Part shown: positions 542-15,593 of the stretch, piece by piece
How the letters are laid out: each line of letters starts with the position of its first letter
Numbering within the stretch: the first letter of the stretch is position 1
Virus record (IMG/VR): IMGVR_UViG_2663762841_000005
DNA: 15,620 nucleotides
From: a virus
Lineage: Duplodnaviria; Heunggongvirae; Uroviricota; Caudoviricetes
Strand: one strand, 5' to 3'
Notes under the pieces: model-generated
Database searches by the model: none
What the model saw: the letters and a program-made list of their open reading frames with translations, nothing else
What the model was told of the DNA's origin: nothing
Program-made: the position numbers and the translations under genes

Positions 542-1579
542 TTAACGCTTATCCGCCACCAGTTTGAGCGCGTGTTCCAGCACATTAATGTCTGCACCCG
601 CTTTATGGGCATTTTCACTTAAATAACGCCGCCACTGCCGCGCGCCAGGAATACCCTGGAACAAGCCCAACATATGCCGGGTAATATGGCCGAGATACGT
701 CCCCTGGCTGAGTTCACGCTCAATGTACGGATACATGGCGCGCACTACCGCCACTGGATCGGCATCGGTATCCGAGGAACCAAAGATCTCCCGGTCTACC
801 GCCGCCAGAATACCCGGATTCTGATACGCCTCGCGCCCGACCATCACGCCATCCATATGTTGCAGGTGTGCTTTGGCCTCTTCCAGCGACTTGATACCAC
901 CGTTAATCGACATTGTCAGATGCGGAAAGTCACGCTTCAGTTGATACACACGCGGATAATCGAGCGGCGGGATTTCACGGTTTTCTTTCGGGCTTAACCC
1001 CGAAAGCCAGGCTTTACGTGCGTGGATGATAAACATCTCACACTCGCCTTTGCCGGAAACGGTGTTGATGAAATCGCAGAGAAATTCATAGCTGTCCTGG
1101 TCATCGATGCCAATACGCGTTTTCACCGTCACTGGAATCGACACCACATCGCGCATCGCTTTCACGCAGTCGGCAACCAGCTGCGCATTACCCATCAGAC
1201 ACGCACCAAACATGCCGTTCTGCACCCGGTCAGACGGGCAGCCGACATTCAGGTTGATCTCATCATATCCACGCGCTTCTGCCAGCTTCGCACACTGTGC
1301 CAGCGCCGCCGGATCGCTACCGCCGAGTTGCAACGCTACCGGATGTTCTTCTTCACTGTACGCCAGGTAATCACCTTTACCGTGAATAATCGCCCCTGTG
1401 GTCACCATTTCGGTATACAGCAACGTATTGCGGGAAAGCAGACGCAAGAAATAGCGGCAATGTCTGTCCGTCCAGTCGAGCATAGGAGCAATGCTAAACC
1501 GAGAACTCCAGTAAGCGCCAGTTTTTTCAGGCATCACGCTGGTTTGATTAGTTTTCTGTGTTTCAGGATTATCGTGCAT
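542..1579 (-). CDS. dusA: tRNA-dihydrouridine(20/20a) synthase DusA
   Basis: 345-aa ORF with recognisable DusA/YjbN sequence ([22 protein letters not shown]...LNVGCPS...IHARKAWL...). An alternative internal start (MPEKTG, residue 16) would give the 330-aa form. The 5' end of this gene is the known target of dusA-specific integrases. Confidence 0.93.
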
Positions 1580-1667: not shown

Positions 1668-2765
1668 ATGGCGTACTATAACATAGAGAAACGACTAAAA
1701 TCCGATGGCACACCACGCTATCGCTGTAATGTGATTATCAAAGAAAAAGGTGTTATCACTTACAGGGAAAGCAAAACATTCCCTAAACATGCTCATGCCA
1801 AAACATGGGGCGCACAGAAAGTGATGGAATTAGATCTATATGGCATTCCATCATCAAATGCTGTTGACGGACTTACAGTCCGTGACTTACTACACAAATA
1901 TTTAAATGACCCAAATGCCGGAGGTAAAGCAGGCCGTACTAAAAGATATGTGCTGGAACTGCTTATGGATAGTGACATCTCCGCGATCAAACTATCTGAA
2001 CTGACAGAAAATGACGTAATTGAACATTGCAGGCTAAGAAACAACGCTGGTGCAGGCCCAGCAACAGTCAGCCACGATGTTAGTTATCTTGGCAGTGTTC
2101 TGGATGCGGCAAAACCTGTATACGGAATCAATTACACATCAAACCCGGCGAAAAGCGCTCGTCCATATCTACTTAAACTCGGTTTGATTGGTAAATCAAA
2201 CCGTCGTAATCGTAGACCAGCATCTGATGAACTGAACATGCTCATTGAAGGCCTTCAACAACGATCTACTCATAAATGCTCAAAAATTCCGTTCGTTGAT
2301 ATCCTCAAATTTTCTGTGTGGTCCTGTATGCGAATCGGAGAAGTATGCCGGTTACGATGGGAAGATCTCGACCAGGAACAAAAATCTATACTAGTAAGAG
2401 ACAGGAAAGATCCACGTAAAAAGGAAGGCAACCATATGAAAGTTGCCTTGCTTGGGGAAGCCTGGGATATCGTCCAGCGACAACCCAAAAAATCAGAATT
2501 CATTTTTCCATATAACAGCACTTCTGTTACCGCAGGATTTCAGAGGGTAAGAAGCAAATTAGGTATTAAAGATCTGAGATACCATGATTTGCGTAGAGAA
2601 GGGGCAAGTCGCTTATTTGAGGCTGGTTTTAGTATTGAGGAAGTCGCTCAGGTTACAGGGCATCGTTCATTAAACGTGCTATGGCAGGTATATACCGAAC
2701 TGTATCCGAAATCTTTACATAATCGTTTTGAAGAACTCCAAAGGAGCAGAAATAAGACCTCTTGA
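1668..2765 (+). CDS. Tyrosine-type site-specific integrase (dusA-associated integrase family candidate)
   Basis: 365-aa ORF with a C-terminal tyrosine recombinase catalytic region (RIGEV...R, HDLRREG, GHRSLNVLWQVYTELY with the candidate catalytic Tyr). It is the first island gene, directly adjacent to and transcribed away from the dusA 5' end. Confidence 0.9.
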   Translation: MAYYNIEKRLKSDGTPRYRCNVIIKEKGVITYRESKTFPKHAHAKTWGAQKVMELDLYGIPSSNAVDGLTVRDLLHKYLNDPNAGGKAGRTKRYVLELLMDSDISAIKLSELTENDVIEHCRLRNNAGAGPATVSHDVSYLGSVLDAAKPVYGINYTSNPAKSARPYLLKLGLIGKSNRRNRRPASDELNMLIEGLQQRSTHKCSKIPFVDILKFSVWSCMRIGEVCRLRWEDLDQEQKSILVRDRKDPRKKEGNHMKVALLGEAWDIVQRQPKKSEFIFPYNSTSVTAGFQRVRSKLGIKDLRYHDLRREGASRLFEAGFSIEEVAQVTGHRSLNVLWQVYTELYPKSLHNRFEELQRSRNKTS

Positions 2766-2825: not shown

Positions 2826-3074
2826 ATGCGTATTGAAATCTGCATAGCCAAAGAAAAAATGACTAAAATGCCAACCGGTGCTGTGGATGCGTTAAAGGAA
2901 GAATTAACCCGACGCATCAGTAAACGTTATGACGATGTAGAAGTGATCGTAAAAGCCACCAGCAACGATGGCCTTTCTGTTACGCGCACCGCTGATAAAG
3001 ATTCAGCTAAAACTTTTGTTCAGGAGACTCTGAAAGATACCTGGGAGTCTGCTGACGAGTGGTTTGTTCATTAA
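2826..3074 (+). CDS. DinI-family DNA damage-inducible protein (prophage DinI homologue)
   Basis: 82-aa [14 protein letters not shown]...[11 protein letters not shown], with DinI-like length, N-terminus (MRIE..IAK) and C-terminal TWESAD-WF motif; preceded by a LexA box. Confidence 0.8.
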
Positions 3075-3106
3075 GTTCATCATCTCTGGACACCATTCAC
3101 TTGTAT

Positions 3107-3135
3107 TGACTTTAAGATCATTAAATTGTAATAAT
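3107..3135 (+). promoter_or_regulatory. Sigma-70-like promoter (-35 TTGACT 3107-3112, 17-bp spacer, -10 AATAAT 3130-3135) driving the ncRNA-TM-RT module
   Basis: 5/6 matches in both hexamers with optimal spacing; the predicted transcription start (about 3142-3145) coincides with the first arm (a1) of the 12-nt inverted repeat. Confidence 0.4.
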
Positions 3136-3140
3136 TCAAA

Positions 3141-3277
3141 GGGATGGGGCAGGTTTTTCCTCTTGCGCATGCAAGGGCGGCTCTGATAATGAACAGTAAT
3201 ATTTTACTGTTGAGCTTATGCTCACTGATCCTGCCGGGCAGGATGTTCAACGGTTCCAATATATCCTGCCCCTTCCG
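3141..3277 (+). ncRNA. Candidate structured non-coding RNA upstream of the TM-RT gene pair (retron msr-msd-like or DRT-type ncRNA); boundaries approximate
   Basis: No ORF; flanked by an inverted repeat GGATGGGGCAGG (3142-3153) / CCTGCCCCTTCC (3265-3276), 12 nt with one mismatch. Internal hairpins: CTTGC-GCAT-GCAAG (3162-3175), CAGTAA-TATT-TTACTG (3194-3209), TGAGC-TTAT-GCTCA (3211-3224), and the 17-bp palindrome ATCCTGCCGGGCAGGAT (3228-3244). Sits between a promoter and the TM/RT genes. Confidence 0.35.
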
Positions 3278-3296
3278 CTTTTAAAAAGGATCTTTT

Positions 3297-3848
3297 ATGC
3301 ATGACAATATTTGGTTTACATATAAAGCACGTATCCAAGCGCACCATCGACTAGAATGGCTTGAAAAACACTCTCAATTTATCCTCGTTTGGTATGCTAT
3401 ATTGAGTGCGGTACTTTCAATTGTAACGTTGCGATTTCCAAAGGTTCTAGGAGATAATACAGATGTCGTTGCGGCGATACTTTCAGTGGCTCTACTGGGT
3501 ATTTCTCTGATCGTATCTAACCTAGATTTTCGTGGTCGAGCAATAGCCATGAGAAGGAATTATATTGCACTACAGCGACTCTATTTTGACATTACCACCA
3601 GTCAACAGTTATCTCTTGAACAGAAAGAAAAATATTTTAATTTGCTCAATGAGGTTGAGAATCACCGTGACATAGATGATAAAATTTCAAGGGTAACTCA
3701 AGTTGGACTTAAGACGAGGATCCCCACACAAAAAGAAAAAATAATTGTTATTTTATGGATATTACTTCGAATATTTATTACTGCCGCACTTTATATACTC
3801 CCATTAATATATCTTTGGATTGACTATGACTGCAAGCAGAATTTTTAA
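3297..3848 (+). CDS. Small multi-TM membrane protein (2 N-terminal TM helices plus a C-terminal hydrophobic segment); candidate effector of the RT module, possibly SLATT-like
   Basis: 183-aa ORF, AT-rich, SD AAGGA 7 nt before the ATG. Hydrophobic stretches FILVWYAILSAVLSIVTL, VVAAILSVALLGISLIVSNL and IIVILWILLRIFITAALYILPLIYLWI. Its 3' end overlaps the RT start by 29 nt, suggesting translational coupling. The SLATT assignment is a guess from architecture. Confidence 0.65.
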   Translation: MHDNIWFTYKARIQAHHRLEWLEKHSQFILVWYAILSAVLSIVTLRFPKVLGDNTDVVAAILSVALLGISLIVSNLDFRGRAIAMRRNYIALQRLYFDITTSQQLSLEQKEKYFNLLNEVENHRDIDDKISRVTQVGLKTRIPTQKEKIIVILWILLRIFITAALYILPLIYLWIDYDCKQNF

Positions 3849-5196
3849 AAAGTCATTCTCGAAAAAAAATCTTCTAAAAGTATACTCTGAAAAAATCAAA
3901 GAATCAGGAGCGATTGGCATAGATCGGATTCGCCCATCAAAACTTGATTTGACAATAAAAAATGAGATCACTTTCATTTTTGAAAAGGTTAATTCTGGCA
4001 ATTACAAATTTACAGCATATAAAGAAAAATTAATATCTAAAGGCGCTAACTCTACACCCAGACAGATTTCCATACCAACTGCTAGGGACAGAATTACTCT
4101 TAGAGCTCTCTGTGAATGCCTTACGGAAATATATCCTAAGTCCAGATTAAAACTACCACATACAGTAATTGACTCATTGAAAGAAGCATTAAACAACAGT
4201 CTATATGCTGAATATGCAAAAATAGATCTTAAAAGTTTCTATCCTTCAATTGAACATAAATTGATAATTAATGCAATAAAAAATAAAATTAGAAAAAAAG
4301 AAATTAGACAGTTAATAACATCATCATTAATCGTGCCTACTGTAAGTGGAACCACAGGAAGCAAAGGTATCCCTAATAATACCAGAGGAGTACCTCAGGG
4401 ATTAGCGATATCAAACATTTTAGCTGAAATATCACTATCTAATTTCGATGATGAAATCAATAAAATGCATGACATATGGTACATGCGATACGTTGATGAC
4501 ATTCTTATTTTAACACCAAAATATCAAGCAACAAAAATAGCTTCTCATATCATTGATAAGCTTCAATCATTAAATTTAAACCCACATCCATTAAATGAAG
4601 AGAACTCAAAATCCAAAGTAGGCAGTTTGGATGAAAGTTTTAACTTTTTGGGATACCACATAGAAAATCGAGAATTATTGATAAAACATGAGAGCATTCT
4701 TAGATTTGAGTCATCCTTAGCAAAAATTTTTACTGCATATAGGCACGCTCTACTACAAGCTAAAAGTAAGCGTGATAAAGAACGAGCTGTTGCATATTGT
4801 CAGTGGAAACTAAATCTCAGAATTACGGGATGTGTGTTTGAAGGTAAACGATTGGGATGGGTATCGTACTTCTCACAAATAACCTCAACAGCTCAACTTC
4901 GCTCTGTTAATCATACTATCAATAATCTTATCCGCCGATTCGGCCTTTCATCAGAAATAAAACCAAAATCTTTGATTAAAACTTTCTATGAACTCCGCAG
5001 AGGTAGAGCGGAGACTTTTAAATACATACCTAACTTTGACAATCTACATATATCTCAGAAACGAGAACTTGTTTCTATGTGGATAGGTAAAGAGAAGGAA
5101 AAAAAACTTAGCAATAGTGAAATAGAGAGGAAGTTTAAATTTAAAATTGCGAAATCAGTAAAAGAGCTTGAAGAGGATATTTCAGGAATATCATAG
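3820..5196 (+). CDS. Reverse transcriptase (prokaryotic retron/Abi/UG-type, defence-associated candidate)
   Basis: 458-aa ORF with canonical RT motifs: motif A IDLKSFYPSI (Asp about residue 136), motif B' GVPQGLAISNILAEISL (about 190-206), motif C YVDD (residues 224-227, nt 4489-4500), motif E-like FLGY, plus a C-terminal extension of roughly 170 aa. A possible retron-like NN..A and ITG (region-7 VTG-like) are present, but the spacing differs from Ec86, so the family call is tentative. Confidence 0.9.
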   Translation: MTMTASRIFKKSFSKKNLLKVYSEKIKESGAIGIDRIRPSKLDLTIKNEITFIFEKVNSGNYKFTAYKEKLISKGANSTPRQISIPTARDRITLRALCECLTEIYPKSRLKLPHTVIDSLKEALNNSLYAEYAKIDLKSFYPSIEHKLIINAIKNKIRKKEIRQLITSSLIVPTVSGTTGSKGIPNNTRGVPQGLAISNILAEISLSNFDDEINKMHDIWYMRYVDDILILTPKYQATKIASHIIDKLQSLNLNPHPLNEENSKSKVGSLDESFNFLGYHIENRELLIKHESILRFESSLAKIFTAYRHALLQAKSKRDKERAVAYCQWKLNLRITGCVFEGKRLGWVSYFSQITSTAQLRSVNHTINNLIRRFGLSSEIKPKSLIKTFYELRRGRAETFKYIPNFDNLHISQKRELVSMWIGKEKEKKLSNSEIERKFKFKIAKSVKELEEDISGIS

Positions 5197-5250
5197 ATAT
5201 GTAATCCATTAAGTCATTAAAATATATCGCAATAAACACACTATTTAAAC

Positions 5251-5667
5251 TCACAAACCAGCCGCAGTATCCTGCCATGGCAAGTTGCTGCGGCTTTTTA
5301 TGTTCAACGGATCAACAGCCAGATCAGAAGACACGCTACCCACGTTGTAAACGAACGAGTAAAGAGCGCCGCGCGTTGTTTCCGGTATATCGACTTTGAT
5401 GTACGGGTTAATTTGTCTGGCGACCGTGGCAAGGTCTTTATTCAGGAGGGCTTTGCATTCTGCTTCGGTATACGTTTTACCTAGCATGATGTCTTTTCCG
5501 GTGTGTCCGTAACATACAGTCCATACGCCAACGATATCTTTGTATGGTATGTAGCTGACACCTTCCAGGCCATCGTCACCACTTGGGCCAGTGATTAACA
5601 CTGATGCTATAGCAATTGCTCCGCCACCAATAGCAGCAGCAACTGCTTTTCGTAATGATGGAGGCAT
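5251..5667 (-). CDS. SAR endolysin (phage 21 R-type, T4-lysozyme-fold glycoside hydrolase), apparently 3'-truncated at the junction with the RT cassette
   Basis: N-terminal signal-anchor [27 protein letters not shown] followed by the lysozyme catalytic region ([26 protein letters not shown]...[15 protein letters not shown]). After about residue 110 (nt about 5340) the sequence loses lysozyme character and reads through the plus-strand terminator before stopping; full-length homologues are about 165 aa by my recollection. Its start overlaps the holin stop. Confidence 0.75.
5260..5300 (+). terminator. Rho-independent terminator of the RT operon (AGCCGCAG ... CTGCGGCT stem, then TTTTTAT)
   Basis: 8-bp perfect inverted repeat at 5260-5267 / 5288-5295 enclosing a palindromic TGCCATGGCA core, followed by a T-run at 5295-5299; about 65 nt downstream of the RT stop. 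Confidence 0.6.
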
Positions 5668-5882
5668 TATTCACCTCTTGCAGCCTTGCGCTTATCTTCT
5701 TTAATCTTGAAATAAAGGTTTGTCAGGTACGTCAGCAGGCCAAATACCAGGCTACCCAGCACACCTATTGCTGCCCACTGTGAGGGCGTGACTTTATCGA
5801 GCAGCTGTAAAAACCAGTAACCGGCACTACCTGCTGAGGTGCCATAGGCGACACCCGTTGTTAACTTATCCATGGATTTCAT
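5667..5882 (-). CDS. Phage 21 S-type pinholin (class II holin) with dual-start motif MKSMDK
   Basis: 71-aa product [29 protein letters not shown]...[13 protein letters not shown], closely resembling S21 (two TM helices, charged C-terminus, dual start Met1/Met4). SD GAGGTG lies upstream of the ATG at 5882. The track ORF 5667..5945 over-extends the N-terminus. Confidence 0.85.
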
Positions 5883-5949
5883 AACCCCACCTCGCAGATG
5901 CGGGTGCTGTGTAATGGAAATAAAAAGGCCACCTGACGTGGCCACCAGA

Positions 5950-7002
5950 TTATTTCCCCACCAGCTCGTTTATCTCTTTCACTGTCTGGTTAAACCGCTC
6001 TGACTCAAGCTCAACACCTAAGGCCCGACGCCCCAGCGCCATTGCTGCTTTTATTGTGGAACCGGATCCCATAAAAAAATCAGCAACCAGATCACCAGGT
6101 CGACTACTGGCATTGATTATTTGCCTGAGCATATCCGCCGGTTTCTCACACGGATGTTTACCCGGGTAGAACTGAACGGGTTTATGCATCCAGACATCGG
6201 TATAAGGCACGGAGACTGATACGGAGAAATAGCGCCGGAGAGATTTAAACTCATCCAGCAATTCAGAATATTTGCGATTCAGTGAATCATAAGATGCCAC
6301 CAGCTGGTGGTGTGGTTGTTCCAGTTGTTGTTCCTGAAACTTCTCTGCCGCTATACGGGAAAACAGTGCCTGTAACTTCCGATAGTCAGCCTCATTCGGC
6401 AACTGCCACTGACTGGCACCAAACCAGTGGGAAACCATATTTTTCTTACCTGTGGCTTCGGCAATTTGTTTTGCCGTTATACCCAGTTCGGCACGAGCAT
6501 CCCTGAAATACGATATCAGCGGTGCCATTATGTGCTGTTTGAGTTCCCTTTCTTTTGCCGCATAGCCGTCACTTTTGCCGCGATATGGCCCCTGGTAATG
6601 TTCAGCAAACAGAACGCGCTCTGTGGCAGGAAAATATGCGCGCAGACTTTCTTTATTACACCCATTCCAACGTCCGGACGGCTTCGCCCAGATGATATGG
6701 TTAAGCACGTTGAAACGTTCACGCATCATGATCTCAATATCAGATGCCAGGCGATGCCCACAGAACAGGTAAAGGCTTCCGGCAGGTTTTAACACCCGCC
6801 AGAACTGGGCCAGACAGTGGTCCAGCCACTTAAGGTAATCTTCGTCCCCTTTCCACTGATTGTCCCAGCCGTTGGGTTTCACCTTGAAGTACGGCGGATC
6901 GGTAACAATCAGGTCAATGGAATCATCAGGCAGGGACTGAATAAAATGCAGGCAATCAGCGTTGATTAAATCAACACTGTTTATTTTTACAGTATTTTTC
7001 AT
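5950..7002 (-). CDS. DNA methyltransferase (N6-adenine/N4-cytosine family, DPPY motif), orphan
   Basis: 350-aa ORF with motif IV TDPPYF near the N-terminus and a C-terminal AdoMet-binding region (DFFMGSGST). No adjacent restriction endonuclease gene is visible. Confidence 0.85.
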
Positions 7003-7151
7003 GGATCAGTAAGCGTAACTCTGGTAGGCTCACTCTGCTTTTGCGCTAAAGCAGTGGGCCGTGGTTCGCTTGTGACCAGTAAGCATGAGCGAATGGCTGG
7101 CAGGTGCTACCAACACCCACCAGCCGCCCATTTTCACAAATTAAAAGTCCT

Positions 7152-7370
7152 TCATTGCTGAAGGCGTCTGTAACAGCCGAACTGGTAATCTGCCAGCCCC
7201 GCCATAACCAACTGGGTCAGTATTAACTGACAGCGTTCGCGTGAAAGATATGTGTTTTGTGCAATCTCCCCGACTGTTGCCGGTTCGATGCTTAATTCAT
7301 TAAAAACAACTTTCGCCGTTTCTGTCATATCTTGCTGTTTTAGCATGTCTTTTTTCCTTCTGGTTAACAT
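7152..7370 (-). CDS. Hypothetical small protein (72 aa)
   Basis: ORF only; basic N-terminus, possible helix-turn-helix-like segment (ATVGEIAQNTYLSRERCQLIL). No confident family assignment. Confidence 0.4.
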   Translation of the reverse strand: MLTRRKKDMLKQQDMTETAKVVFNELSIEPATVGEIAQNTYLSRERCQLILTQLVMAGLADYQFGCYRRLQQ

Positions 7371-7467
7371 GACATACCAATAACTCTTGTCTAAAAAGCC
7401 AGCAAGATAAAAAGTCAGTATTCACGACCACCAGCGTGTTTACCGTACTGCACCAGGTTTACAGGTA

Positions 7468-7494
7468 CAAAAAAACCCGCTCTACGGCGGGTTT
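7468..7494 (-). terminator. Rho-independent terminator on the minus strand (AAACCCGC / GCGGGTTT stem, 6-nt loop, U7 tract)
   Basis: On the minus strand the 8-bp stem (plus-strand 7473-7480 / 7487-7494) is followed by a run of seven T; possibly the lambdoid tR'-type terminator downstream of a late promoter remnant. Confidence 0.6.
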
Positions 7495-7592
7495 AAGCTG
7501 TGTGGCGAAGTAACCACTCTTAACAGATTATGATAGTTTTTGCGTACGCGTTAGTAATTTATTATGCTCTTTACAATTGTTAGCTTAACCGC

Positions 7593-8759
7593 ATGGAATT
7601 GACCAAAAAAATGAGCAAAGCAAGCATACGCCACGTAATCGTTCATGAGCTCTTAAAAGAATCTAATAAAGACTTCGATCACTCCAAACCATACAATCTT
7701 CGTGATACAGAACTAGATAAAACAAATGATATAGTAAAAAAATTAGTAGACGGTGTTATTGATTTGTATGGTTCAAAAGGGAACTCAGCGCATTATGGTG
7801 TTTTTATTAAAAATAAAACAAAGCAAGGCCCTATACCAGAACTATTTCATAAATACTCTTTAGTTCAACAATCTGTTTCAAGTGATTTCATTGAATTATC
7901 GAAGGAAGTTATGAAACAAATGTATAAATCTGCTCAAGAGCAGATTTGGGCTTCTGGAGGATATGTTGTTTTTACTGATTATATTTTATCTGGTTTCCGT
8001 TATCTATTGGTTACAATGATCAAAAAAACTAATGGCGTAACTATTAGTGAAAATTTAGAGCCAGAGGAAATGATTCACTTAGAACTTGGTAATATTAACC
8101 AAGCAGCAAAAATAAATTTCAGATATTATGAAGAATACCAAAAAGCAGATGACTTAAAAAAAACAGACTTAAGTTATCTAAGCTTTATAAGCAAAACTAC
8201 GGGACAGTCAGCGGCAGCATATTTTATAGCAGCATTAGGATGTGACAAGGGGATTGCTTCAGCAGGTGCAACCCGTAAGTTACCAGATGAAATAAGGCGT
8301 TTCTTTAAGAAAGAACCTCTTTTAAAAAATCAAGCAGAGTCATTTAGAAATGATGTTATCAAATACTTAGAAAAGCAATTTGACAACGAGCACTCTGCAA
8401 GGCTTTCTGATATCGAATCGCTTGCTTCAGGCCATATGTCCTATTTAAAAGAGGAAGAAAAAACAGAACTTGTTGATAAATTAATGAAACACCTCAATAG
8501 TGAGGAAGTCAGAATCCCATCAGAGTTCGTAATCAATAAAAACTCCTTAGATAAAATCAGCAATGTGATATATAAAACCCCATCATTGAGCTTTCACTTC
8601 GACAAGGATTTACTCGGTGTCACAACTGATGCTAAAATATATTATGATGACGAAAACCAAAGCCTAACATTTAATAATTTGCCTGTTGAAGCATTAACTA
8701 AGATAAGAAGAGCGTTGAAAGAAACTGATAACCCAAGTAATGAAGAAGATAAAGAATGA
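7593..8759 (+). CDS. Nucleoid-associated protein NdpA/YejK-family homologue (divergent, AT-rich)
   Basis: 388-aa ORF with YejK-like blocks: IRHVIVHELLK near the N-terminus, GGYVVFTDYILSGFRYLLVTMIKKTNGVTISENLEPEEMIHLELGNINQAAKIN, and YLSFISKTTGQSAAAYFIAALGCDKG. The probable true start is the ATG at 7611 (MSKASIRHV...), which aligns with the YejK N-terminus; 7593 is the longest ORF. Its stop overlaps the start of the next gene (ATGA). Confidence 0.75.
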   Translation: MELTKKMSKASIRHVIVHELLKESNKDFDHSKPYNLRDTELDKTNDIVKKLVDGVIDLYGSKGNSAHYGVFIKNKTKQGPIPELFHKYSLVQQSVSSDFIELSKEVMKQMYKSAQEQIWASGGYVVFTDYILSGFRYLLVTMIKKTNGVTISENLEPEEMIHLELGNINQAAKINFRYYEEYQKADDLKKTDLSYLSFISKTTGQSAAAYFIAALGCDKGIASAGATRKLPDEIRRFFKKEPLLKNQAESFRNDVIKYLEKQFDNEHSARLSDIESLASGHMSYLKEEEKTELVDKLMKHLNSEEVRIPSEFVINKNSLDKISNVIYKTPSLSFHFDKDLLGVTTDAKIYYDDENQSLTFNNLPVEALTKIRRALKETDNPSNEEDKE

Positions 8760-9982
8760 ATGATTTTAGTATAATAGTTAATCTGTATAGATTATCAAGC
8801 TATCCTCATTTTGACGGGGCTAAGTTTTCTGCGCGTATAGCTTATAATGCAGACGTAAAATCATTGTTCAAAAGAATTTTGAACCCTACTTTTCAAGCTG
8901 GTACAGCTGACGAAATAGAGGTGGATGGTCATTTAATTTATGATTATGAAGACTTTCCTGAAAAGGGAAATTTTCTTACATACTCGTTTAAAATTTCACA
9001 AGGAAGTGCGAATCGTTTTTATAAAAATAAAAACGAGTTTGTAAAAATAAACACGCTCAAGAAAGGCATAATGCCAGAGTATTTCTATATTATAGAGGAT
9101 GATTTCTATTCATTAGAAACACCAAAACCTTCTTATATCCAAAAAATTGAGGACATTTGTGAGCTAATCAATGCTCTTTCCATGCTTGCTCATTTCCATG
9201 ATATAAAAAAAGATAGCAAAGGTACATTTTATCGTTTAGTCTTTATTTTAAACTCAGAGTCTAAATCTTCTTCTGCTGTAATTGAAACAAATATTACAGA
9301 AGAAATTTTTAATGATAAAACAGTAAATACTCAGTTAGTTAAAACATTAGTAAGTAGTGAAGCTACTACTGATGCCCATCACATTGAAAAGATTAACACT
9401 TTCAGAAACACAGTTATTGAGTATGTTAATAAAAATGGAAATTCCTTTGTCGAGTTAATTAACAAGTGGGATTTCATATGCGAACTTTATACGAACAACT
9501 TAGCTGCTTATATGTCGGCATTTTCTTTTCATAAAGCAAGGAAAGAAGTTGTTGATGCTGAACTCGATTACTCAGAAAAACTGTCAAAAATAATTTCAGA
9601 AATTTCTAACAAAGCTCTTGCAATACCTATTTCACTAGCTGGTTCAATTGCTATTTTCAAATTAACAACAAAAGCTGATTGGATTATTGCTTTAATTGGA
9701 TTGATTATCACAGCAATAATAACATCTGCAATGATTGTGTCACAAAAAAAACAACTTGCTCGTATTTCACACTCTAAAGAAATACTTTTTGGACAATTAA
9801 GATATAGAATAAAGGATGACACCAGCGATCTTAAAGAGAGCTTAGAAGAGGCTATTAAAAAATTAAATGACAATGAGGATTTTTGTCATAAGGTGCTTGA
9901 CAGTTTATTATCACTAGCATGGATGCCTACATTCATAGGCATCATCGGTATTTTATTTAAATTAATGCCAAATATTACTTGA
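8756..9982 (+). CDS. Hypothetical protein with soluble N-terminal domain and three C-terminal TM helices; candidate membrane effector partner of the NdpA-like protein
   Basis: 408-aa ORF, AT-rich, translationally coupled to the upstream gene (4-bp overlap). Predicted TM segments at about residues 287-302, 309-327 and 383-403 (nt about 9614-9964). No recognisable catalytic motifs. Its 3' end overlaps the 3' end of the convergent Q gene by 8 bp. Confidence 0.7.
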   Translation: MNDFSIIVNLYRLSSYPHFDGAKFSARIAYNADVKSLFKRILNPTFQAGTADEIEVDGHLIYDYEDFPEKGNFLTYSFKISQGSANRFYKNKNEFVKINTLKKGIMPEYFYIIEDDFYSLETPKPSYIQKIEDICELINALSMLAHFHDIKKDSKGTFYRLVFILNSESKSSSAVIETNITEEIFNDKTVNTQLVKTLVSSEATTDAHHIEKINTFRNTVIEYVNKNGNSFVELINKWDFICELYTNNLAAYMSAFSFHKARKEVVDAELDYSEKLSKIISEISNKALAIPISLAGSIAIFKLTTKADWIIALIGLIITAIITSAMIVSQKKQLARISHSKEILFGQLRYRIKDDTSDLKESLEEAIKKLNDNEDFCHKVLDSLLSLAWMPTFIGIIGILFKLMPNIT

Positions 9983-10334
9983 GCATGTACATAACCCCAT
10001 TAATGAAACCTAACGCAGTCTGCAATTGCTTCCGGATTGTTCCATCTGAGCATCTGCGTCTCTTCGCAATAGAACGCAGTGAAATACCTATAACGAAGTG
10101 AGCAATGATCAGCTCATATTCGTCTGGTTTATACTTACACAGGCGGGCAACACAGCCGTCTATCATGATGCCTTCATCATCATCACACTGAAGGCGTATT
10201 TTTTTACCATGAGGTAAAAGCCCCTTAAAGCCTGCTGCTATCGGCTGCCAGTCCACACCACTGTTATCTGCTGCAGCCCACGCTCCCCAGCGGTCTAAAA
10301 CTTCATACATATCACGCATCAACTTTCTCCACAA
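9975..10334 (-). CDS. Lambdoid antitermination protein Q (phage 82/21-type, QuuD-like)
   Basis: 119-aa product with LDRWGAWAA, IAAGFKGL, QCDDDEGIMIDGCVARL and CSDGTIRKQL blocks, matching the small Q-family antiterminators as I recall them. Confidence 0.8.
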   Translation of the reverse strand: MWRKLMRDMYEVLDRWGAWAAADNSGVDWQPIAAGFKGLLPHGKKIRLQCDDDEGIMIDGCVARLCKYKPDEYELIIAHFVIGISLRSIAKRRRCSDGTIRKQLQTALGFINGVMYMLK

Positions 10335-10336
10335 AA

Positions 10337-11332
10337 TCAGGCCAGCACGCCAATTGCCAGCGCACGATCGATAAAACGAAATATCAGCTCCAGCTGGGAG
10401 CCATACTTCTCTTCAAATGCCACGGTATCCGCATGCAGCTCGTCGTGATGCTTTCTGCACAAAGGCAACACAAAAAGGTCATGCGCTTTTGTTCCCATTC
10501 CACCCTGACCGTGACCTATCAGGTGGTGGGGATCATCAGCGGGCTTTCCACAACATGCACACGGCTGTGTCTTAACCCAGCGCGTGTACTTTTCATTAAC
10601 CCAGCGGCGACGTTTGGGGCGTAACATAAAAGACTCCGGCGACTCCGGATCCACTTTCAGCGCCAGCACCTTTTTCGCCTTATCCTGGATGATGCTGGTG
10701 GCAGGAACCGAAGGCACAAGGTCACTTTCCCGGGTAACAGACGGCACAACAGGCTTCGGTAATCTCAGTGCCTTACGGGCTGCACTTTCCGGTAAGGCAT
10801 CCGCCAGATCATTACGAATCAGCCACCAGCACAGTTCCGGCATTGTCACAACGTGACTGTCATCAAAACCGAGATCCCGACGCACAACAGACAACACCCA
10901 GCGGGCACAGTTATCCGTTGCCATTGATTCCAGCCGTTCCGTGAACTGATCGCGCAGCTGGTTATCGCAGTGCCAGCACAGACGGATTGCACCCGGAGCG
11001 TGTCGCATTGTGGTCATGTTCTCGCTGTGCCAGTCGGAATGAGGCCACTGGCAGCCTTTTTCACGAAGTAACCAGCTTTCAAGACATTCCACGCCACCAG
11101 CACGACGGATCACTGCCTCATTGCGGAACACGGCCCGAACGGCAGGATCATCCGCCAGCGGTTGTGATGCCGCCGGAACGGCACCACTGGCGAAAGATGA
11201 ATAACGCTCCGGCTCAGGCTCCAGCAGGACACGCCCCTGCATAAACAGGGGCATCAACTCTGAACCTGGCCTGAACAATACGATCCCCATACGCGGGGCA
11301 ATTTCAGGGGTCAGTAGTGCTCTCACGGTCAC
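10337..11332 (-). CDS. Phage protein, DUF968-like with C-terminal HNH/zinc-finger-like motif
   Basis: 331-aa ORF; the C-terminal CACCGKPADDPHHLIGHGQGG...CRKHHDELH cluster resembles HNH-type metal-binding motifs; position in the nin-like region upstream of Q. Confidence 0.65.
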   Translation of the reverse strand: MTVRALLTPEIAPRMGIVLFRPGSELMPLFMQGRVLLEPEPERYSSFASGAVPAASQPLADDPAVRAVFRNEAVIRRAGGVECLESWLLREKGCQWPHSDWHSENMTTMRHAPGAIRLCWHCDNQLRDQFTERLESMATDNCARWVLSVVRRDLGFDDSHVVTMPELCWWLIRNDLADALPESAARKALRLPKPVVPSVTRESDLVPSVPATSIIQDKAKKVLALKVDPESPESFMLRPKRRRWVNEKYTRWVKTQPCACCGKPADDPHHLIGHGQGGMGTKAHDLFVLPLCRKHHDELHADTVAFEEKYGSQLELIFRFIDRALAIGVLA

Positions 11333-11333
11333 C

Positions 11334-12131
11334 TCAATGAACGGTATCGAGCAGCTTTAACAGCTCAGGGAATCGGGATTCGAAGAAATGCGGCTGCGTC
11401 TCGCGCGGATTTGCGGGACTGGTGATGTTCTTGCCGAACATGCAACCTTTCGCTGTCAGCGACCAGAATTTTTTGATGTTGTTAATCGCGGTACGACTGT
11501 ATCGTTCGCGCTGCTCGACGATCCCCAGCTTCACCATCTGGTGATATGCCTGATTAGCTGTCAGGCGGATACCATACTGCTTCAGCAGTGCACTCAGTGA
11601 CAGCGTGGGGCGGCTTGAGCCATCAGGCGCGTCAGCAGGAGCATCAATGGCATAGCGCGGTGCCAGATTCGGTAAGCCAACAGCCTCCTGGAGTTTCTGA
11701 CAGGCACCAAGCACTGAAGAGTTAGACAGGTTTAATTCCCGGCGCATAAAGTCCAGCAGAATCACACCAGCCTGCATCTTGTCAGCAGCCTGTCCGGATA
11801 ATTTTTCCGGTGCGCTGGTTACCATGTCGAAAGTACGGATCACCTTAAGATGGAATGACGGGCTTATCCACATTGCATAGGCATACACCAGTTCTTTGCA
11901 GACATACGTCCCCTGGTTATTTCCGCCACGAATAACGTTAACTGGCTCTATATTGACCGAGTTGCAAATCTGCAACTCGCTTATTAAACGTTCAGTTTGC
12001 TCATTGCGGAGCCAGAATGCAGGCTTATGCTTATCCAGAGAACCGGCAGCCCTGTGCAGATCGTTCAGGCTGTAACGCCCATAAGCATCACGACGAACTT
12101 CAATACCATCAATAACCATCAGATTATTCAT
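11334..12131 (-). CDS. KilA-N domain protein (antirepressor-like)
   Basis: 265-aa ORF with an N-terminal KilA-N-like segment (MNNLMVIDGIEVRRDAYGRYSLNDLHRAAG...). Confidence 0.7.
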   Translation of the reverse strand: MNNLMVIDGIEVRRDAYGRYSLNDLHRAAGSLDKHKPAFWLRNEQTERLISELQICNSVNIEPVNVIRGGNNQGTYVCKELVYAYAMWISPSFHLKVIRTFDMVTSAPEKLSGQAADKMQAGVILLDFMRRELNLSNSSVLGACQKLQEAVGLPNLAPRYAIDAPADAPDGSSRPTLSLSALLKQYGIRLTANQAYHQMVKLGIVEQRERYSRTAINNIKKFWSLTAKGCMFGKNITSPANPRETQPHFFESRFPELLKLLDTVH

Positions 12132-12150
12132 ACTTCGTTTCTCCTCTTAA

Positions 12151-12540
12151 TCAGGCGGCTGCACCCGCCGGTTTCTCATACTTACTGATAGTGATCTCGA
12201 CCTTCCCTTTCGGGATAACCGGTCCCCACTCCACCAGCATTCTTTTCACCTGTCTGTCGTCTTCCCACACACCCGCGTGGGTCAACGCGTCAAACAGCGC
12301 CTTGTTATAGTTGTCCAGATCGCGGATCCGGTTATCCGGAGGAAACAACACGATCTCCACTGAAGCAGGTGCCGACGTTGGTTTCGGCAGACGACGTAAC
12401 TGCTCAACTATTGCTGCGCACGCCGCGCTCTGAAATTTTCGCCCCGCCTCGCTTATCAGGCTCTTACCAGCAAATGCCCCTTTGTTGGGGTGTCGCCAGT
12501 ACGTGTTCACACTGGGCGGGAAAGGAAGGATCAACTTCAT
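12151..12540 (-). CDS. rusA: RusA-family Holliday junction resolvase
   Basis: 129-aa product with RusA-like blocks (PPSVNTYWRH..., RDLDNYNKALFDALTHAGVWEDDRQV, VEITI). Confidence 0.85.
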   Translation of the reverse strand: MKLILPFPPSVNTYWRHPNKGAFAGKSLISEAGRKFQSAACAAIVEQLRRLPKPTSAPASVEIVLFPPDNRIRDLDNYNKALFDALTHAGVWEDDRQVKRMLVEWGPVIPKGKVEITISKYEKPAGAAA

Positions 12541-12863
12541 ACTTTCAGGCCCCTCTCATGTAACCAGTGGGCTGCACGCAACCTGGCGTTCTCCTCACCG
12601 GCAAGCAGTGCGCGGATGATACCGACCGCCTCGCTGTCGTCGTCCTTCACTGCGGTATGAAGCGTGATCCCCCGGGCCACGCCACGCTTTATCGTGATGA
12701 CGCCTTTTTTCTCCAGTGCGCGAAGATGCTCCACGGCTGCATTCACTGAACGGTATCCCAGCATGGTTGCCACCTCCTGATTGGTTGGCAGAAAGCCACG
12801 CTCTTGCTGGTAAGAAATCAGAATATCCAGCACCTGCTGCTGGCATTGAGTTAACGTCGTCAT
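12537..12863 (-). CDS. LexA-type N-terminal DNA-binding domain protein (no S24 peptidase domain)
   Basis: 108-aa ORF; the N-terminus LTQCQQQVLDILISYQQERGFLPTNQEVATMLGYRSVNAAVEHLRALEKKGVI resembles the LexA winged-HTH domain; overlaps neighbours by 4 bp on each side (operon context). Confidence 0.6.
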   Translation of the reverse strand: MTTLTQCQQQVLDILISYQQERGFLPTNQEVATMLGYRSVNAAVEHLRALEKKGVITIKRGVARGITLHTAVKDDDSEAVGIIRALLAGEENARLRAAHWLHERGLKV

Positions 12864-13546
12864 GCCGCCATCTCCCTAACCAGTTTTTCCGCCTGCTGGC
12901 GAACCTGCGCCAGAAACGCCTCACCACATGCCTCAAGTTCATCGCGCCCGATGTAGCTGATTGCCGGTCCCTTCCAGGTCTTATCGAAAACAGCAATAGC
13001 ACCAGCGAAGAAAGCGCCTGTCGGCACCTGCTTCTCATCCTTCGGGATAAACCAGGCAGGCAGTTCAAAACCAATACGCCCGCGAATAAAAGCAATATGG
13101 TCCGCATCTTCCGGCCACCACACTTCGCTGGTGGCAGCTTTGATCAGGAAAACATAGCGCCCACCCTTATCACGCATGGCACTGGCATGTTTCATGATGT
13201 AACGCATGCCGGTGATGTATTGCCCCTCATGCTGACTGGCGCGGCTGTATGGGGGATTACCAAAGGCAGCCCCTTTAAGCTCCGCAAGACGTTCTGACCA
13301 GTCATGCGCCAGCGCGTTGTCTTCCGCCGTGTAATACGCAGCACATTTGGCGTTATCACCGTCAGTGAACAGATCCAGAACAAACGGGCCAAACAGGGTG
13401 TTAATTCCCCAGAAAATGTTGTCCGGCGTGCGCCACTGATCGCCCACTTCCTTCAGTTCATGGGCTGGTTTGTTCCGCAGTTCCACCAGCGCCTGGCAAT
13501 ATTTATTACTCATTAAGCCCCCACGTAATTCCCTGACAGATACCAC
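12860..13546 (-). CDS. Phage Dam-like N6-adenine DNA methyltransferase
   Basis: 228-aa ORF with motif GNPPYS (DPPY-type) and similarity in layout to phage N-6-adenine-methyltransferase family proteins. Confidence 0.8.
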   Translation of the reverse strand: MVSVRELRGGLMSNKYCQALVELRNKPAHELKEVGDQWRTPDNIFWGINTLFGPFVLDLFTDGDNAKCAAYYTAEDNALAHDWSERLAELKGAAFGNPPYSRASQHEGQYITGMRYIMKHASAMRDKGGRYVFLIKAATSEVWWPEDADHIAFIRGRIGFELPAWFIPKDEKQVPTGAFFAGAIAVFDKTWKGPAISYIGRDELEACGEAFLAQVRQQAEKLVREMAA

Positions 13547-14007
13547 TCATCACCCGGTACAGCGCGCTTGCTGCTTTTCCGTAAACACCGCTCACGACGC
13601 GCAAGAAAATTGTTTCGCTCTGGCTGGGAGTGGCTTTCACGGAATGCCGCCATCCACACCGTTGCAGCACGACGGTATAAGCCCCTCGACTCCAGTTCTT
13701 CCGCCTGGCGGGTCAGGCACAAAATCACCCGGGGATCGTTAGTGCCGACATAGAAATTGCGCACAGGTCTGGTTTCACGAACTGGTTGCGGTTCCGCCTC
13801 CTGCGCTCTCTCAGTCAGGCGCGGGAAATGTCTGCGTGTATCCCCTTCACAACGGTGAGCCACACGACCACTCTGACGTAACTTGCTTGCTGACTGCAGA
13901 ACGCGCTGCCGTGAGTAACCTGCAAAAGCATCCGCAATGTCTCCGGAAGTACACCCCGGATGGGCTTCAATGTATTTCTGAACTTCATTCAAAAGACTCA
14001 TGATCAC
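13513..14007 (-). CDS. PerC-like transcriptional regulator domain protein
   Basis: 164-aa ORF; the C-terminal region QAEELESRGLYRRAATVWMAAFRESH...RRERCLRKS resembles PerC/Pch-family activators (AQELEAAGLWRRA...). The N-terminal start is uncertain because it overlaps the Dam gene by 34 nt. Confidence 0.5.
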   Translation of the reverse strand: MIMSLLNEVQKYIEAHPGCTSGDIADAFAGYSRQRVLQSASKLRQSGRVAHRCEGDTRRHFPRLTERAQEAEPQPVRETRPVRNFYVGTNDPRVILCLTRQAEELESRGLYRRAATVWMAAFRESHSQPERNNFLARRERCLRKSSKRAVPGDEWYLSGNYVGA

Positions 14008-14822
14008 CCCCTGAATCCTGCCGGGATCTGGCTGTAGTCCACGTTGTCGTAACTGGCTTTGAAGTACGGGTCCTCGCGTCTGGCTGCAGATACCGCAGGA
14101 ACTTCCCAGGATTCTTCGAAATGACGATCCGGACCAAAGAACGTGACAGCCTGTTTCACAAATTGTGTGCCGCTGTTACCCATCGCAGATACCCAGCCCG
14201 CGTAGCGTTTCACACCTTCCAGCATGGTTTCGGGGTTTACCCCCTCATTCAAACGGGCTTTCCAGGCTTTGAAGGCTGCAGATTTTGAATTGCCACCAGC
14301 ACGTTTGGGATATACCAGCCATGCCTGCTCAAACTCCGGAGAGTATTCCGGTCGGTTTGAACGAACTCGCACGGACTCATCAACTGATGCACCAACAGCT
14401 ATTGGTTCATTGACTGGTTCTTTGACTGGTTCAAAAGAGTGACTGGTTCTGGGTGAATCTCCTGCACTACCCCCTGGTGCAACTCCTGCACTACCTGGTG
14501 AATTTGCTGCACCAGATAGTGAATTATTTGCACTACCCCCTAGTGAATCTCCTGCACCATCCAGATGAAGGAGATAGATATTACTTGAGTTACCTTTTTC
14601 ACCTTTCCGGGTGACTTTTTTTACCAGCCCGGACTCACAAAGGGCCGCAATATGATTCATCACAGAACGTTTGCTAATCTCGCACTGGTCAGCAATATGC
14701 TGGTAGCTGGGCCAGCACTCACCCTGATCGCTGGCATTATCAGCCAGCTTGATCAGAACCAGTTTTCGCAATGGATTACCCACTCGAATTTTCATCGCTT
14801 TAACCATCAGCTCCATACTCAT
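14004..14822 (-). CDS. Phage replication initiation protein: N-terminal HTH (replisome organiser-like) and C-terminal DnaT-like domain, with internal iteron region
   Basis: 272-aa ORF; N-terminal HTH-like segment (WPSYQHIADQCEISKRSVMNHIAALCESGLV), low-complexity Gly/Ser/Ala linker encoded by tandem repeats, and a C-terminus YSQIPAGFRG resembling the DnaT (primosomal protein I) C-terminus. Confidence 0.75.
   Translation of the reverse strand: MSMELMVKAMKIRVGNPLRKLVLIKLADNASDQGECWPSYQHIADQCEISKRSVMNHIAALCESGLVKKVTRKGEKGNSSNIYLLHLDGAGDSLGGSANNSLSGAANSPGSAGVAPGGSAGDSPRTSHSFEPVKEPVNEPIAVGASVDESVRVRSNRPEYSPEFEQAWLVYPKRAGGNSKSAAFKAWKARLNEGVNPETMLEGVKRYAGWVSAMGNSGTQFVKQAVTFFGPDRHFEESWEVPAVSAARREDPYFKASYDNVDYSQIPAGFRG
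14410..14562. repeat. Iteron-like direct repeats inside the replication gene: 3 x TGACTGGTTC, then about 5 tandem 21-23-bp units (consensus about GGTGAATCTCCTGCACTACC)
   Basis: TGACTGGTTC at 14411, 14423 and 14440; tandem units starting near 14452, 14476, 14497, 14519 and 14542. The arrangement (iterons within the initiator gene) parallels lambda ori within gene O. Confidence 0.6.
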
Positions 14823-15055
14823 GCTGCACCTCCGAGATGCTTCATGTTTTTTCCGGAGCGAAAGGCTATAAGCGGCATACTGACGCGGTAATTACGGCCC
14901 AGCGGTTCACAAATCACCTTCTGGCATTCACGGTCAACCAGGCTAACACGTAGAACATGCCCTGCAGGTGTGGTGTACCACTGCCCAACTGTAGGAATTG
15001 ATGTTTTTTTACGCTGAAGCAAACGGCAAATATTGAGGATCAACGGATTAAGCAT
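14819..15055 (-). CDS. Hypothetical phage protein (78 aa)
   Basis: ORF with a 4-bp overlap to the downstream replication gene; no family recognised. Confidence 0.35.
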   Translation of the reverse strand: MLNPLILNICRLLQRKKTSIPTVGQWYTTPAGHVLRVSLVDRECQKVICEPLGRNYRVSMPLIAFRSGKNMKHLGGAA

Positions 15056-15593
15056 GACGATGCCCTCCGCTGATATTCAGGAGACGGTGAATATGAAAAT
15101 TAGCCTTATCCGCCAGACGAATACGTTCAGCCTGCAAGTTAAGAAGGGTTTCTACCAGAACTTGATGCGCCTGCGGATCCGAAAGAGTTACCTTGCGCAG
15201 AGCACGTAGTGCAGTTGTTACATAACTGAGTTTATGTAAGTCTTCATCATTCAGACGAGTGAGGGCTGGGACAGTAGCCATGATGGCAGCCTCCGATAAC
15301 AGTGAATTACCTTCACCACCGGAAACGCCAATTTCGCTGGTGGTGAACTGAACGGGGTTGGCGTAACCGGCGTTATCGGAAACCGGCGCACCTTTCGGTG
15401 CCCCCGTCCAGCCCACCATAATTTGGGTGTGCACAGACGCAGACGATAAAAAAGACGCTGGCGCGTCATATATCGCCGATAACATTTCCAGGACGCCAAT
15501 CCCGGCACCCGCTTTATAAGGTGCCTGAACAGTGTAACGTCCCGGAATGGCAGAATCAATGTGCTGGTGGTCCTTCACACTCAACAAAATCAC
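15048..15593 (-). CDS. Hypothetical phage protein (181 aa); start may lie nearer the window edge
   Basis: Longest ORF in the region; overlaps the next gene by 8 bp. No family recognised; an alternative-frame ORF (15251..15559) is judged spurious. Confidence 0.4.
   Translation of the reverse strand: MILLSVKDHQHIDSAIPGRYTVQAPYKAGAGIGVLEMLSAIYDAPASFLSSASVHTQIMVGWTGAPKGAPVSDNAGYANPVQFTTSEIGVSGGEGNSLLSEAAIMATVPALTRLNDEDLHKLSYVTTALRALRKVTLSDPQAHQVLVETLLNLQAERIRLADKANFHIHRLLNISGGHRHA

Follow-up and report, generated by a model that had tools for sequence, protein, structure and literature searches.

The stretch of DNA analysed here, referred to as the window, comprises 15,620 nt that belong in their entirety to the E. 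coli chromosome, as judged from its ORF list, Pfam and PADLOC matches and annotated genomes. Strains MS10495 (New Zealand) and FAHZZU6014 (China) match the full 15,620 bases at 100% identity, and strain 1EC187 (Ghana) is identical to the window apart from one additional deletion. A dusA-integrated lambdoid prophage begins near the left end of the window, with integrase, a DinI-like gene and a SLATT-reverse transcriptase (RT) pair on one strand facing a truncated endolysin, a pinholin and a methyltransferase on the other (Table 1). In MS10495, the remnant extends over about 20.4 kb from dusA to a duplicated dusA 5' fragment at the far end, and the element is best treated as a roughly 20-kb cryptic prophage remnant.

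Table 1. Features of the window, ordered by position
Feature	Position (nt)	Strand	Remarks
dusA	542-1579	-	ORF list, Pfam, RefSeq annotation; prophage left end (542-2765)
Tyrosine integrase	1668-2765	+	ORF list, Pfam, RefSeq annotation
DinI-like gene	2826-3074	+	
DRT10 (UG17-A) module	3136-5196	+	candidate ncRNA at about 3138-3282, followed by SLATT and RT
SLATT gene	3297-3848	+	overlaps the RT ORF at 3820-3848
RT	3820/3826-5196	+	Pfam RVT_1, PADLOC
Truncated rrrD-type SAR endolysin	5251-5667	-	ORF list; 138 aa, of which 110 native residues and a 28-residue foreign tail, then stop
Foreign 28-codon tail and stop	5251-5337	-	out-of-frame read of the small gene 3' end and the non-coding hairpin region
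Hairpin (5260-5295) and U-tract	5260-5305	+	likely intrinsic terminator of the SLATT-RT operon
Small-gene remnant	5304-5340	-	last 11 codons and stop of a 95-aa gene that follows the tail fibre in relatives
Deletion junction	5337-5340	.	TACC, 4-bp microhomology common to both parental sequences
Native endolysin part, codons 1-110	5338-5667	-	SAR domain at about residues 8-27; E35-x8-D44-x5-T50 motif
essD/S21-type pinholin	5667-5882	-	ORF list, Pfam; intact, 71 aa; MKSM dual-start motif (MKSMDKL start)
Terminator-like hairpin GGCCACGTCAGGTGGCC and T-run	5927-5943	-	consensus scan only
DNA methyltransferase	5950-7002	-	
Lambdoid Q antiterminator	9975-10334	-	early genes further right

Between Q and the methyltransferase and lysis genes lies an antisense pair (7593-9982, + strand), consisting of a gene for an NA37-family nucleoid-associated protein (388 aa) and an overlapping gene for a 408-aa protein that has no Pfam or PADLOC match. 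The same slot holds a DUF262 protein, a HEPN-like nuclease and a Dcm methylase in the prophage of strain WCHEC020032 (L003), and its content differs again in strain fS58a (L004). This region looks like a variable, defence-island-like slot, and the pair is possibly an uncharacterised two-gene system. At the far right of the window, Rfam returned two matches above the gathering score, a C4 antisense RNA (15336-15423, - strand, 82.8 bits) and the Hfq-binding RNA isrK (15448-15524, - strand, 63.7 bits), both of which overlap an ORF (15048-15593, - strand) with an Ash-family Pfam match.

The endolysin ORF encodes the front part of a SAR endolysin, a class characterized by an N-terminal, weakly hydrophobic, Gly/Ala-rich signal-anchor-release domain and by the catalytic motif E-x8-D-x5-T (PMC9239132). 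Residues 1-30 are the same as in RrrD (4ZPU) and phage 21 R (3HDE), where the SAR domain is N-terminal; the catalytic residues E35, D44 and T50 are all present and aligned in the 138-aa product. The similarity then stops: the alignment with both proteins covers residues 1-111 of their 165, and the Pfam Phage_lysozyme profile (PF00959) matches residues 34-111 only, at profile positions 3-80 of 125. A full-length allele of the same prophage, in isolate 2-101 (NZ_CP053785.1; L002), is identical over residues 1-110 and loses all similarity after YSFVYNVG. This bears out the initial annotation, which was made from the sequence alone and had placed the loss of lysozyme-like sequence after that motif, at about 5340; the full-length homologues continue beyond this position, and the 28 C-terminal residues are not conserved in them. 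A complete lysozyme domain would occupy about 165 aa and the full PF00959 profile; the 138-aa product lacks the last 36% of the GH24 domain profile. With so partial a profile match and an alignment that ends at residue 110/111, we classify it as a pseudogene fragment of the R21/RrrD family rather than a functional member, and its sequence predicts an enzymatically inactive protein, even though the catalytic triad is kept. Public annotation already marks the gene as a pseudogene: in all three genomes that carry the junction described below, RefSeq/PGAP labels it "lysozyme RrrD, incomplete, missing C-terminus". Annotation of the 138-aa ORF should follow suit. At least one of these three genomes has another, intact rrrD copy elsewhere.

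The last native codon, G110, occupies 5340-5338, and foreign codons begin at 5337. Translation comparison with the prophages of strains XH992 (L128) and fS58a identified the DNA to the left as the 3' end of a small gene, whose stop lies in a frame offset by 1 from that of the endolysin tail. The tail is read out of frame through this gene and then through non-coding DNA, and is therefore meaningless sequence; no similarity to lysozyme was found in its 28 residues by Pfam, by comparison with the full-length allele or in the 4ZPU and 3HDE alignments. As the initial annotation had noted, the frame continues through the plus-strand hairpin at 5260-5295 to a stop at 5251, in agreement with the ORF list and with folding. 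The 95-aa small gene lies at L004 5410-5697 and L002 1633-1920, where it is annotated as a hypothetical protein or pseudogene; it has an internal stop in the dusA prophage lineage and is intact in two other prophages (L128 and L129).

Immediately upstream of the endolysin, the pinholin is intact. It matches the Pfam family "Bacteriophage P21 holin S" (PF04971) over profile positions 1-63 of 64 (E 2e-35), is identical to WP_000839596.1 in all related loci, and its TAA stop and the endolysin ATG have one base in common (TAATG, 5665-5669), so that both the integrity of the holin and its overlap with the endolysin start were read correctly at the outset. In the gap between methyltransferase gene and pinholin start is a terminator-like hairpin, whose position recalls the lambdoid tR'-type element before lysis genes. 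Beyond the endolysin, the initial annotation had found no Rz/Rz1 or morphogenesis genes, and the window indeed holds only RT, SLATT, DinI, integrase and dusA to the left of 5251. There is no Rz/Rz1-type spanin downstream of the endolysin to complete a holin-endolysin-spanin cassette; in the relative carrying the full-length allele, a spanin-type "lysis protein" gene (L002 7376-7837) falls inside the segment that the window lacks. Because the spanin and every virion gene are gone, the prophage in the window would be unable to lyse cells or to form particles. The phage 21 pinholin kills the cell once triggered (PMC9239132); with its intact pinholin, the prophage therefore still has in essD a gene that may be toxic, subject to any late control that is left.

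The origin of the truncated gene is apparent from comparison with isolate 2-101. Window positions 3672-5340 correspond to L002 1-1669 at 100% identity, and positions 5337-13950 to L002 8001-16614 at 99.93%. The two blocks overlap by 4 bp, their offsets differ by 6,335 bp, and no DNA is inserted between them. Both flanks are thus collinear with a single undeleted relative and meet at a short shared sequence, TACC; an overlap of this kind is a signature of microhomology-mediated illegitimate recombination. When window positions 5000-5950 were compared by megablast with 5,426 complete E. coli genomes, thousands of matches on the holin/endolysin side all broke at 5337-5339, and the junction itself was spanned in only three genomes, those from Ghana, New Zealand and China. 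An assembly artefact is ruled out by the identity of the junction in these three independently finished genomes. The search for related prophages with an intact lysis region, which the initial annotation had proposed, therefore places the breakpoint at 5337-5340, with the prophages of 2-101 and fS58a as references.

We conclude, with a probability of about 0.93, that the truncation goes back to one RecA-independent, microhomology-mediated deletion, in a dusA-integrated lambdoid prophage that was defective beforehand; none of the results speaks against this. The anatomy of the junction suggests that replication slippage or illegitimate end-joining would have brought together two TACC tetranucleotides 6,335 bp apart, the first 11 codons before the end of the small gene downstream of the tail fibre and the second at codons 110/111 of the rrrD-type SAR endolysin. 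Alignment and annotation of the relative give the segment removed: most of the small gene, an S74-type tail-fibre gene, a truncated terminase, DUF1441, a small ORF, the Rz-type spanin and the 55 C-terminal endolysin codons. The outcome is the 138-aa ORF, with SAR anchor and catalytic motif followed by 28 out-of-frame residues running through a hairpin older than the deletion. The deletion left untouched the pinholin, the Q antiterminator, the early region and the int-DinI-DRT10 (ncRNA-SLATT-RT) cargo module. The suggestion of an "insertion/deletion junction" in the initial annotation is therefore right as to a rearrangement that truncates the endolysin after residue 110, which we can now specify as a 6,335-bp deletion at TACC, and wrong as to an insertion of the RT cassette.

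Undeleted relatives place this event within a longer history. Isolate 2-101 carries a near-identical dusA-integrated prophage with the same SLATT and RT proteins, in which RT is followed by a small pseudogene, an S74-type tail fibre, a C-terminally truncated terminase, DUF1441, a small ORF, the spanin-type "lysis protein", a full 165-aa rrrD, essD and the methyltransferase. This prophage is itself defective: its truncated terminase is fused to the tail-fibre region and head and tail genes are absent. Strain fS58a has a complete prophage in this dusA site; its integrase, DinI, SLATT and RT proteins are the same, and it has lom, J, tape measure, tail tube, capsid, portal, terminase, spanin, rrrD and essD; between the two points joined in the window it is 24,353 bp longer. 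In these two undeleted genomes, which were examined in detail, the endolysin is intact and lies 6.7 kb or 24.7 kb from the RT cassette. The undeleted arrangement, running from RT to tail fibre, occurs in 70 of the 5,426 complete E. coli genomes, as against three with the window junction.

The form of 2-101 arose from the complete one when 17,596 bp were lost and the tail-fibre and terminase genes became joined across a 2-bp overlap. Strain 1EC187 (L001) has lost a further 1,353 bp, at window 13216-14568 in the adenine methyltransferase/HTH early region, with a 3-bp TGA overlap (L001 20214-20216), which is another step of the same decay process. Together with a 6,051-bp deletion with a 5-bp overlap in the WCHEC020032 prophage, these other deletions in the prophage family bear the same kind of short overlap, in support of the explanation. 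As the closest relatives by identity are of the 2-101 type, the most parsimonious history is that a defective prophage lost another 6.3 kb. A direct 24.35-kb deletion from an unsampled complete ancestor may have produced the same result, since the junction alone fits either history. The defective state of the 2-101 relative implies that the deletion in the window is a later decay step. The initial annotation was thus correct that the prophage is lysis-defective, with spanin and virion genes gone and neither lysis nor particles to be expected; the truncation of the endolysin is not the event that disabled the phage. The locus offers a clean, datable example of how short-overlap deletions erode a prophage stepwise while sparing its defence cargo, from the complete prophage to a form 17.6 kb shorter, then a 6.3-kb loss and, in one strain, a 1.35-kb loss. 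It raises no new question, and its importance is mainly for annotation.

The hairpin within the foreign tail marks a different boundary. On the plus strand, positions 5260-5295 fold at -21.3 kcal/mol (z -2.46; 3 of 200 shuffled sequences fold as well) and are followed by UUUUUAUGUU. A simple consensus terminator scan did not list this hairpin; its predicted fold and the U-tract suggest an intrinsic terminator for the SLATT-RT operon. Its outer stem is conserved in three contexts. In strain A14 (L127), the same int-DinI-SLATT-RT block stands beside a different tail-fibre module, and homology with the window stops at 5294, where the hairpin (L127 5467-5501) has its final base pair. Strain XH992, conversely, has an RT-less prophage at another locus that carries the small gene and the hairpin (L128 4003-4037), with one U-G pair of the outer stem replaced by U-A, and its homology with the window extends from about 5230/5258 onward, including some sequence to the left of the hairpin. 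The hairpin, common to the RT module and to an RT-less prophage, is thus ancestral and the joint between modules; on these sequence comparisons, it behaves as the recombination joint of the int-DinI-DRT10 (int/cargo) module and the tail-fibre module. The right edge of the RT cassette is accordingly the hairpin itself, at about 5258-5294. The deletion scar lies 42-45 nt further right, and the intervening window 5295-5340 is phage backbone that includes the last 11 codons of the small gene. Two statements of the initial annotation fall with these comparisons, namely that the endolysin breaks exactly where the terminator begins and that the junction is the right-hand boundary of the RT cassette; both come near in position but refer to another feature. 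Annotators should not take the scar for the edge of the DRT10 (UG17) cassette.

The cassette itself is a DRT10 (UG17-A) module. PADLOC detects RT_UG17 over the full profile (1.2e-158) and RTasSLATT (1.5e-56), Pfam finds SLATT_5 and RVT_1, and the module combines an RT of the UG17 clade with a SLATT-5 partner in overlapping ORFs (3820-3848), as expected of DRT10. DRT10 is described as a tripartite ncRNA-SLATT-RT defence system with the ncRNA upstream of SLATT (PMC12632851; 10.64898/2026.04.29.721553). Such an ncRNA is structured and carries an A-B-A' template. In the place described for it, the predicted fold of window 3136-3296 is a basal stem carrying four stem-loops (z -4.44). The published ncRNA probe from Escherichia sp. 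E3659 has no match in the window, so that the candidate ncRNA is a diverged homologue at best, and Rfam gave no match at the candidate ncRNA or in or near the truncated endolysin. A promoter-like site is present at 3106-3135. We also considered the hairpin at 5260-5295 as part of the DRT10 ncRNA and rejected this, since both DRT10 papers put the ncRNA upstream of SLATT (PMC12632851; 10.64898/2026.04.29.721553) and the hairpin is also present in the RT-less prophage of XH992. The whole DRT10 module, which is intact, is on the left of the deletion scar.

Other accounts of the truncation fare less well. One that we consider improbable holds that deletion or recombination favours the (Y)ACCC at rrrD codons 110-111 as a hotspot, owing to local DNA structure or an unknown site-specific activity, so that truncations would recur there. 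The WCHEC020032 prophage, which is a different one, speaks for it: here, an independent deletion of 6,051 bp joins a capsid/protease gene to rrrD via CACCC (NZ_CP034966.1 6014-6018), the same rrrD nucleotides as at the window junction, and the left flank AAGACATCGCCACC resembles the AAGACACGCTACC of the window, giving AAGACA(T)CGC(Y)ACC. This second junction is however a singleton, found in 1 of 5,426 genomes, and it ranked high in the search because its flank by chance extended the match. In surveys that report one best place per record and are not a full enumeration of truncations, a 240-nt query spanning the site found it intact in 3,812 of the 3,844 genomes with this allele family, and an IUPAC "not-G" pattern scan for copies broken at the site returned 0 from IMG/VR, where at least 120 copies are intact, and 0 from JGI metagenomes. 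Across E. coli genomes, IMG/VR and JGI metagenomes, these surveys yielded no evidence of a general rrrD hotspot. Given that rrrD copies number in the thousands and that independent deletions are many, a single near-coincidence would not be improbable, and we regard the shared endpoint as a coincidence aided by C-rich microhomology.

Slightly less probable again is the compound proposal that codons 110-111 are a recurrent deletion endpoint and that, at the same time, a pinholin with an anchored endolysin stump under Q is a favoured or selected end state of domestication beside SLATT/RT. We give still less credit to the idea that selection maintains the 138-aa protein as a functional short form, for instance a membrane-tethered N-lobe acting with the pinholin as a domesticated killing or abortive-infection module beside SLATT/RT. 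The retention of the SAR domain, of the E-x8-D-x5-T motif and of the overlap between holin stop and endolysin start would fit such a role, as would the intact pinholin and Q and the lethality of phage 21 pinholin triggering (PMC9239132), but its tail comes from unrelated DNA read out of frame, it lacks 36% of the GH24 domain profile, the form is known from three genomes with identical DNA and hence shows no sign of selection, and at least one of these hosts has another intact rrrD copy. Insertion of the RT (DRT10) cassette into the lysis cassette, which would have split the endolysin and made the junction both insertion boundary and right edge of the cassette, was suggested by the RT stop (5196) and the hairpin lying just 42-145 nt from the break, and can be dismissed as refuted by intact relatives: a cassette with identical proteins is found in 70 genomes with an undeleted tail-fibre side (the endolysin being intact in the two examined) and adjoins the integrase at the prophage end in all 70, its homology in another context ends at 5294 while RT-less prophages share 5258 onward and 5295-5340 is backbone, and the missing half of rrrD is not found to the left of the cassette.

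Set against the phage 21 cassette, S21-R21 (3HDE/3HDF)-Rz/Rz1, the pinholin of the window matches P21 holin S almost over its full length, endolysin residues 1-110 align with R21 with four substitutions only, including the SAR domain and E35/D44/T50, and the overlap of holin stop and endolysin start is present here too; unlike R21, the endolysin lacks residues 111-165 and ends in a 28-aa nonsense tail, and the spanin genes are absent. The DLP12-type essD-rrrD-rzpD cassette (RrrD, 4ZPU) belongs to the same gene family, PGAP gives the genes the same names, and both cassettes sit in defective lambdoid prophages; whereas K-12-type genomes keep rrrD intact around the site, the window has a pseudogene without its 3' end and has lost the rzpD-type gene. 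As in DRT10/UG17-A systems, the cassette of the window combines RT_UG17 and SLATT profiles with an overlap between SLATT and RT, and its structured intergenic stretch is a candidate for the ncRNA; it merely adjoins the truncated endolysin, and the deletion leaves it untouched. Compared with other microhomology-mediated deletions of decaying prophages, nothing is distinctive except that a second, independent deletion uses the same rrrD nucleotides. With its clean two-block homology, its loss of virion and lysis genes and its retention of integrase and cargo, the locus is ordinary prophage decay by microhomology-mediated deletion.
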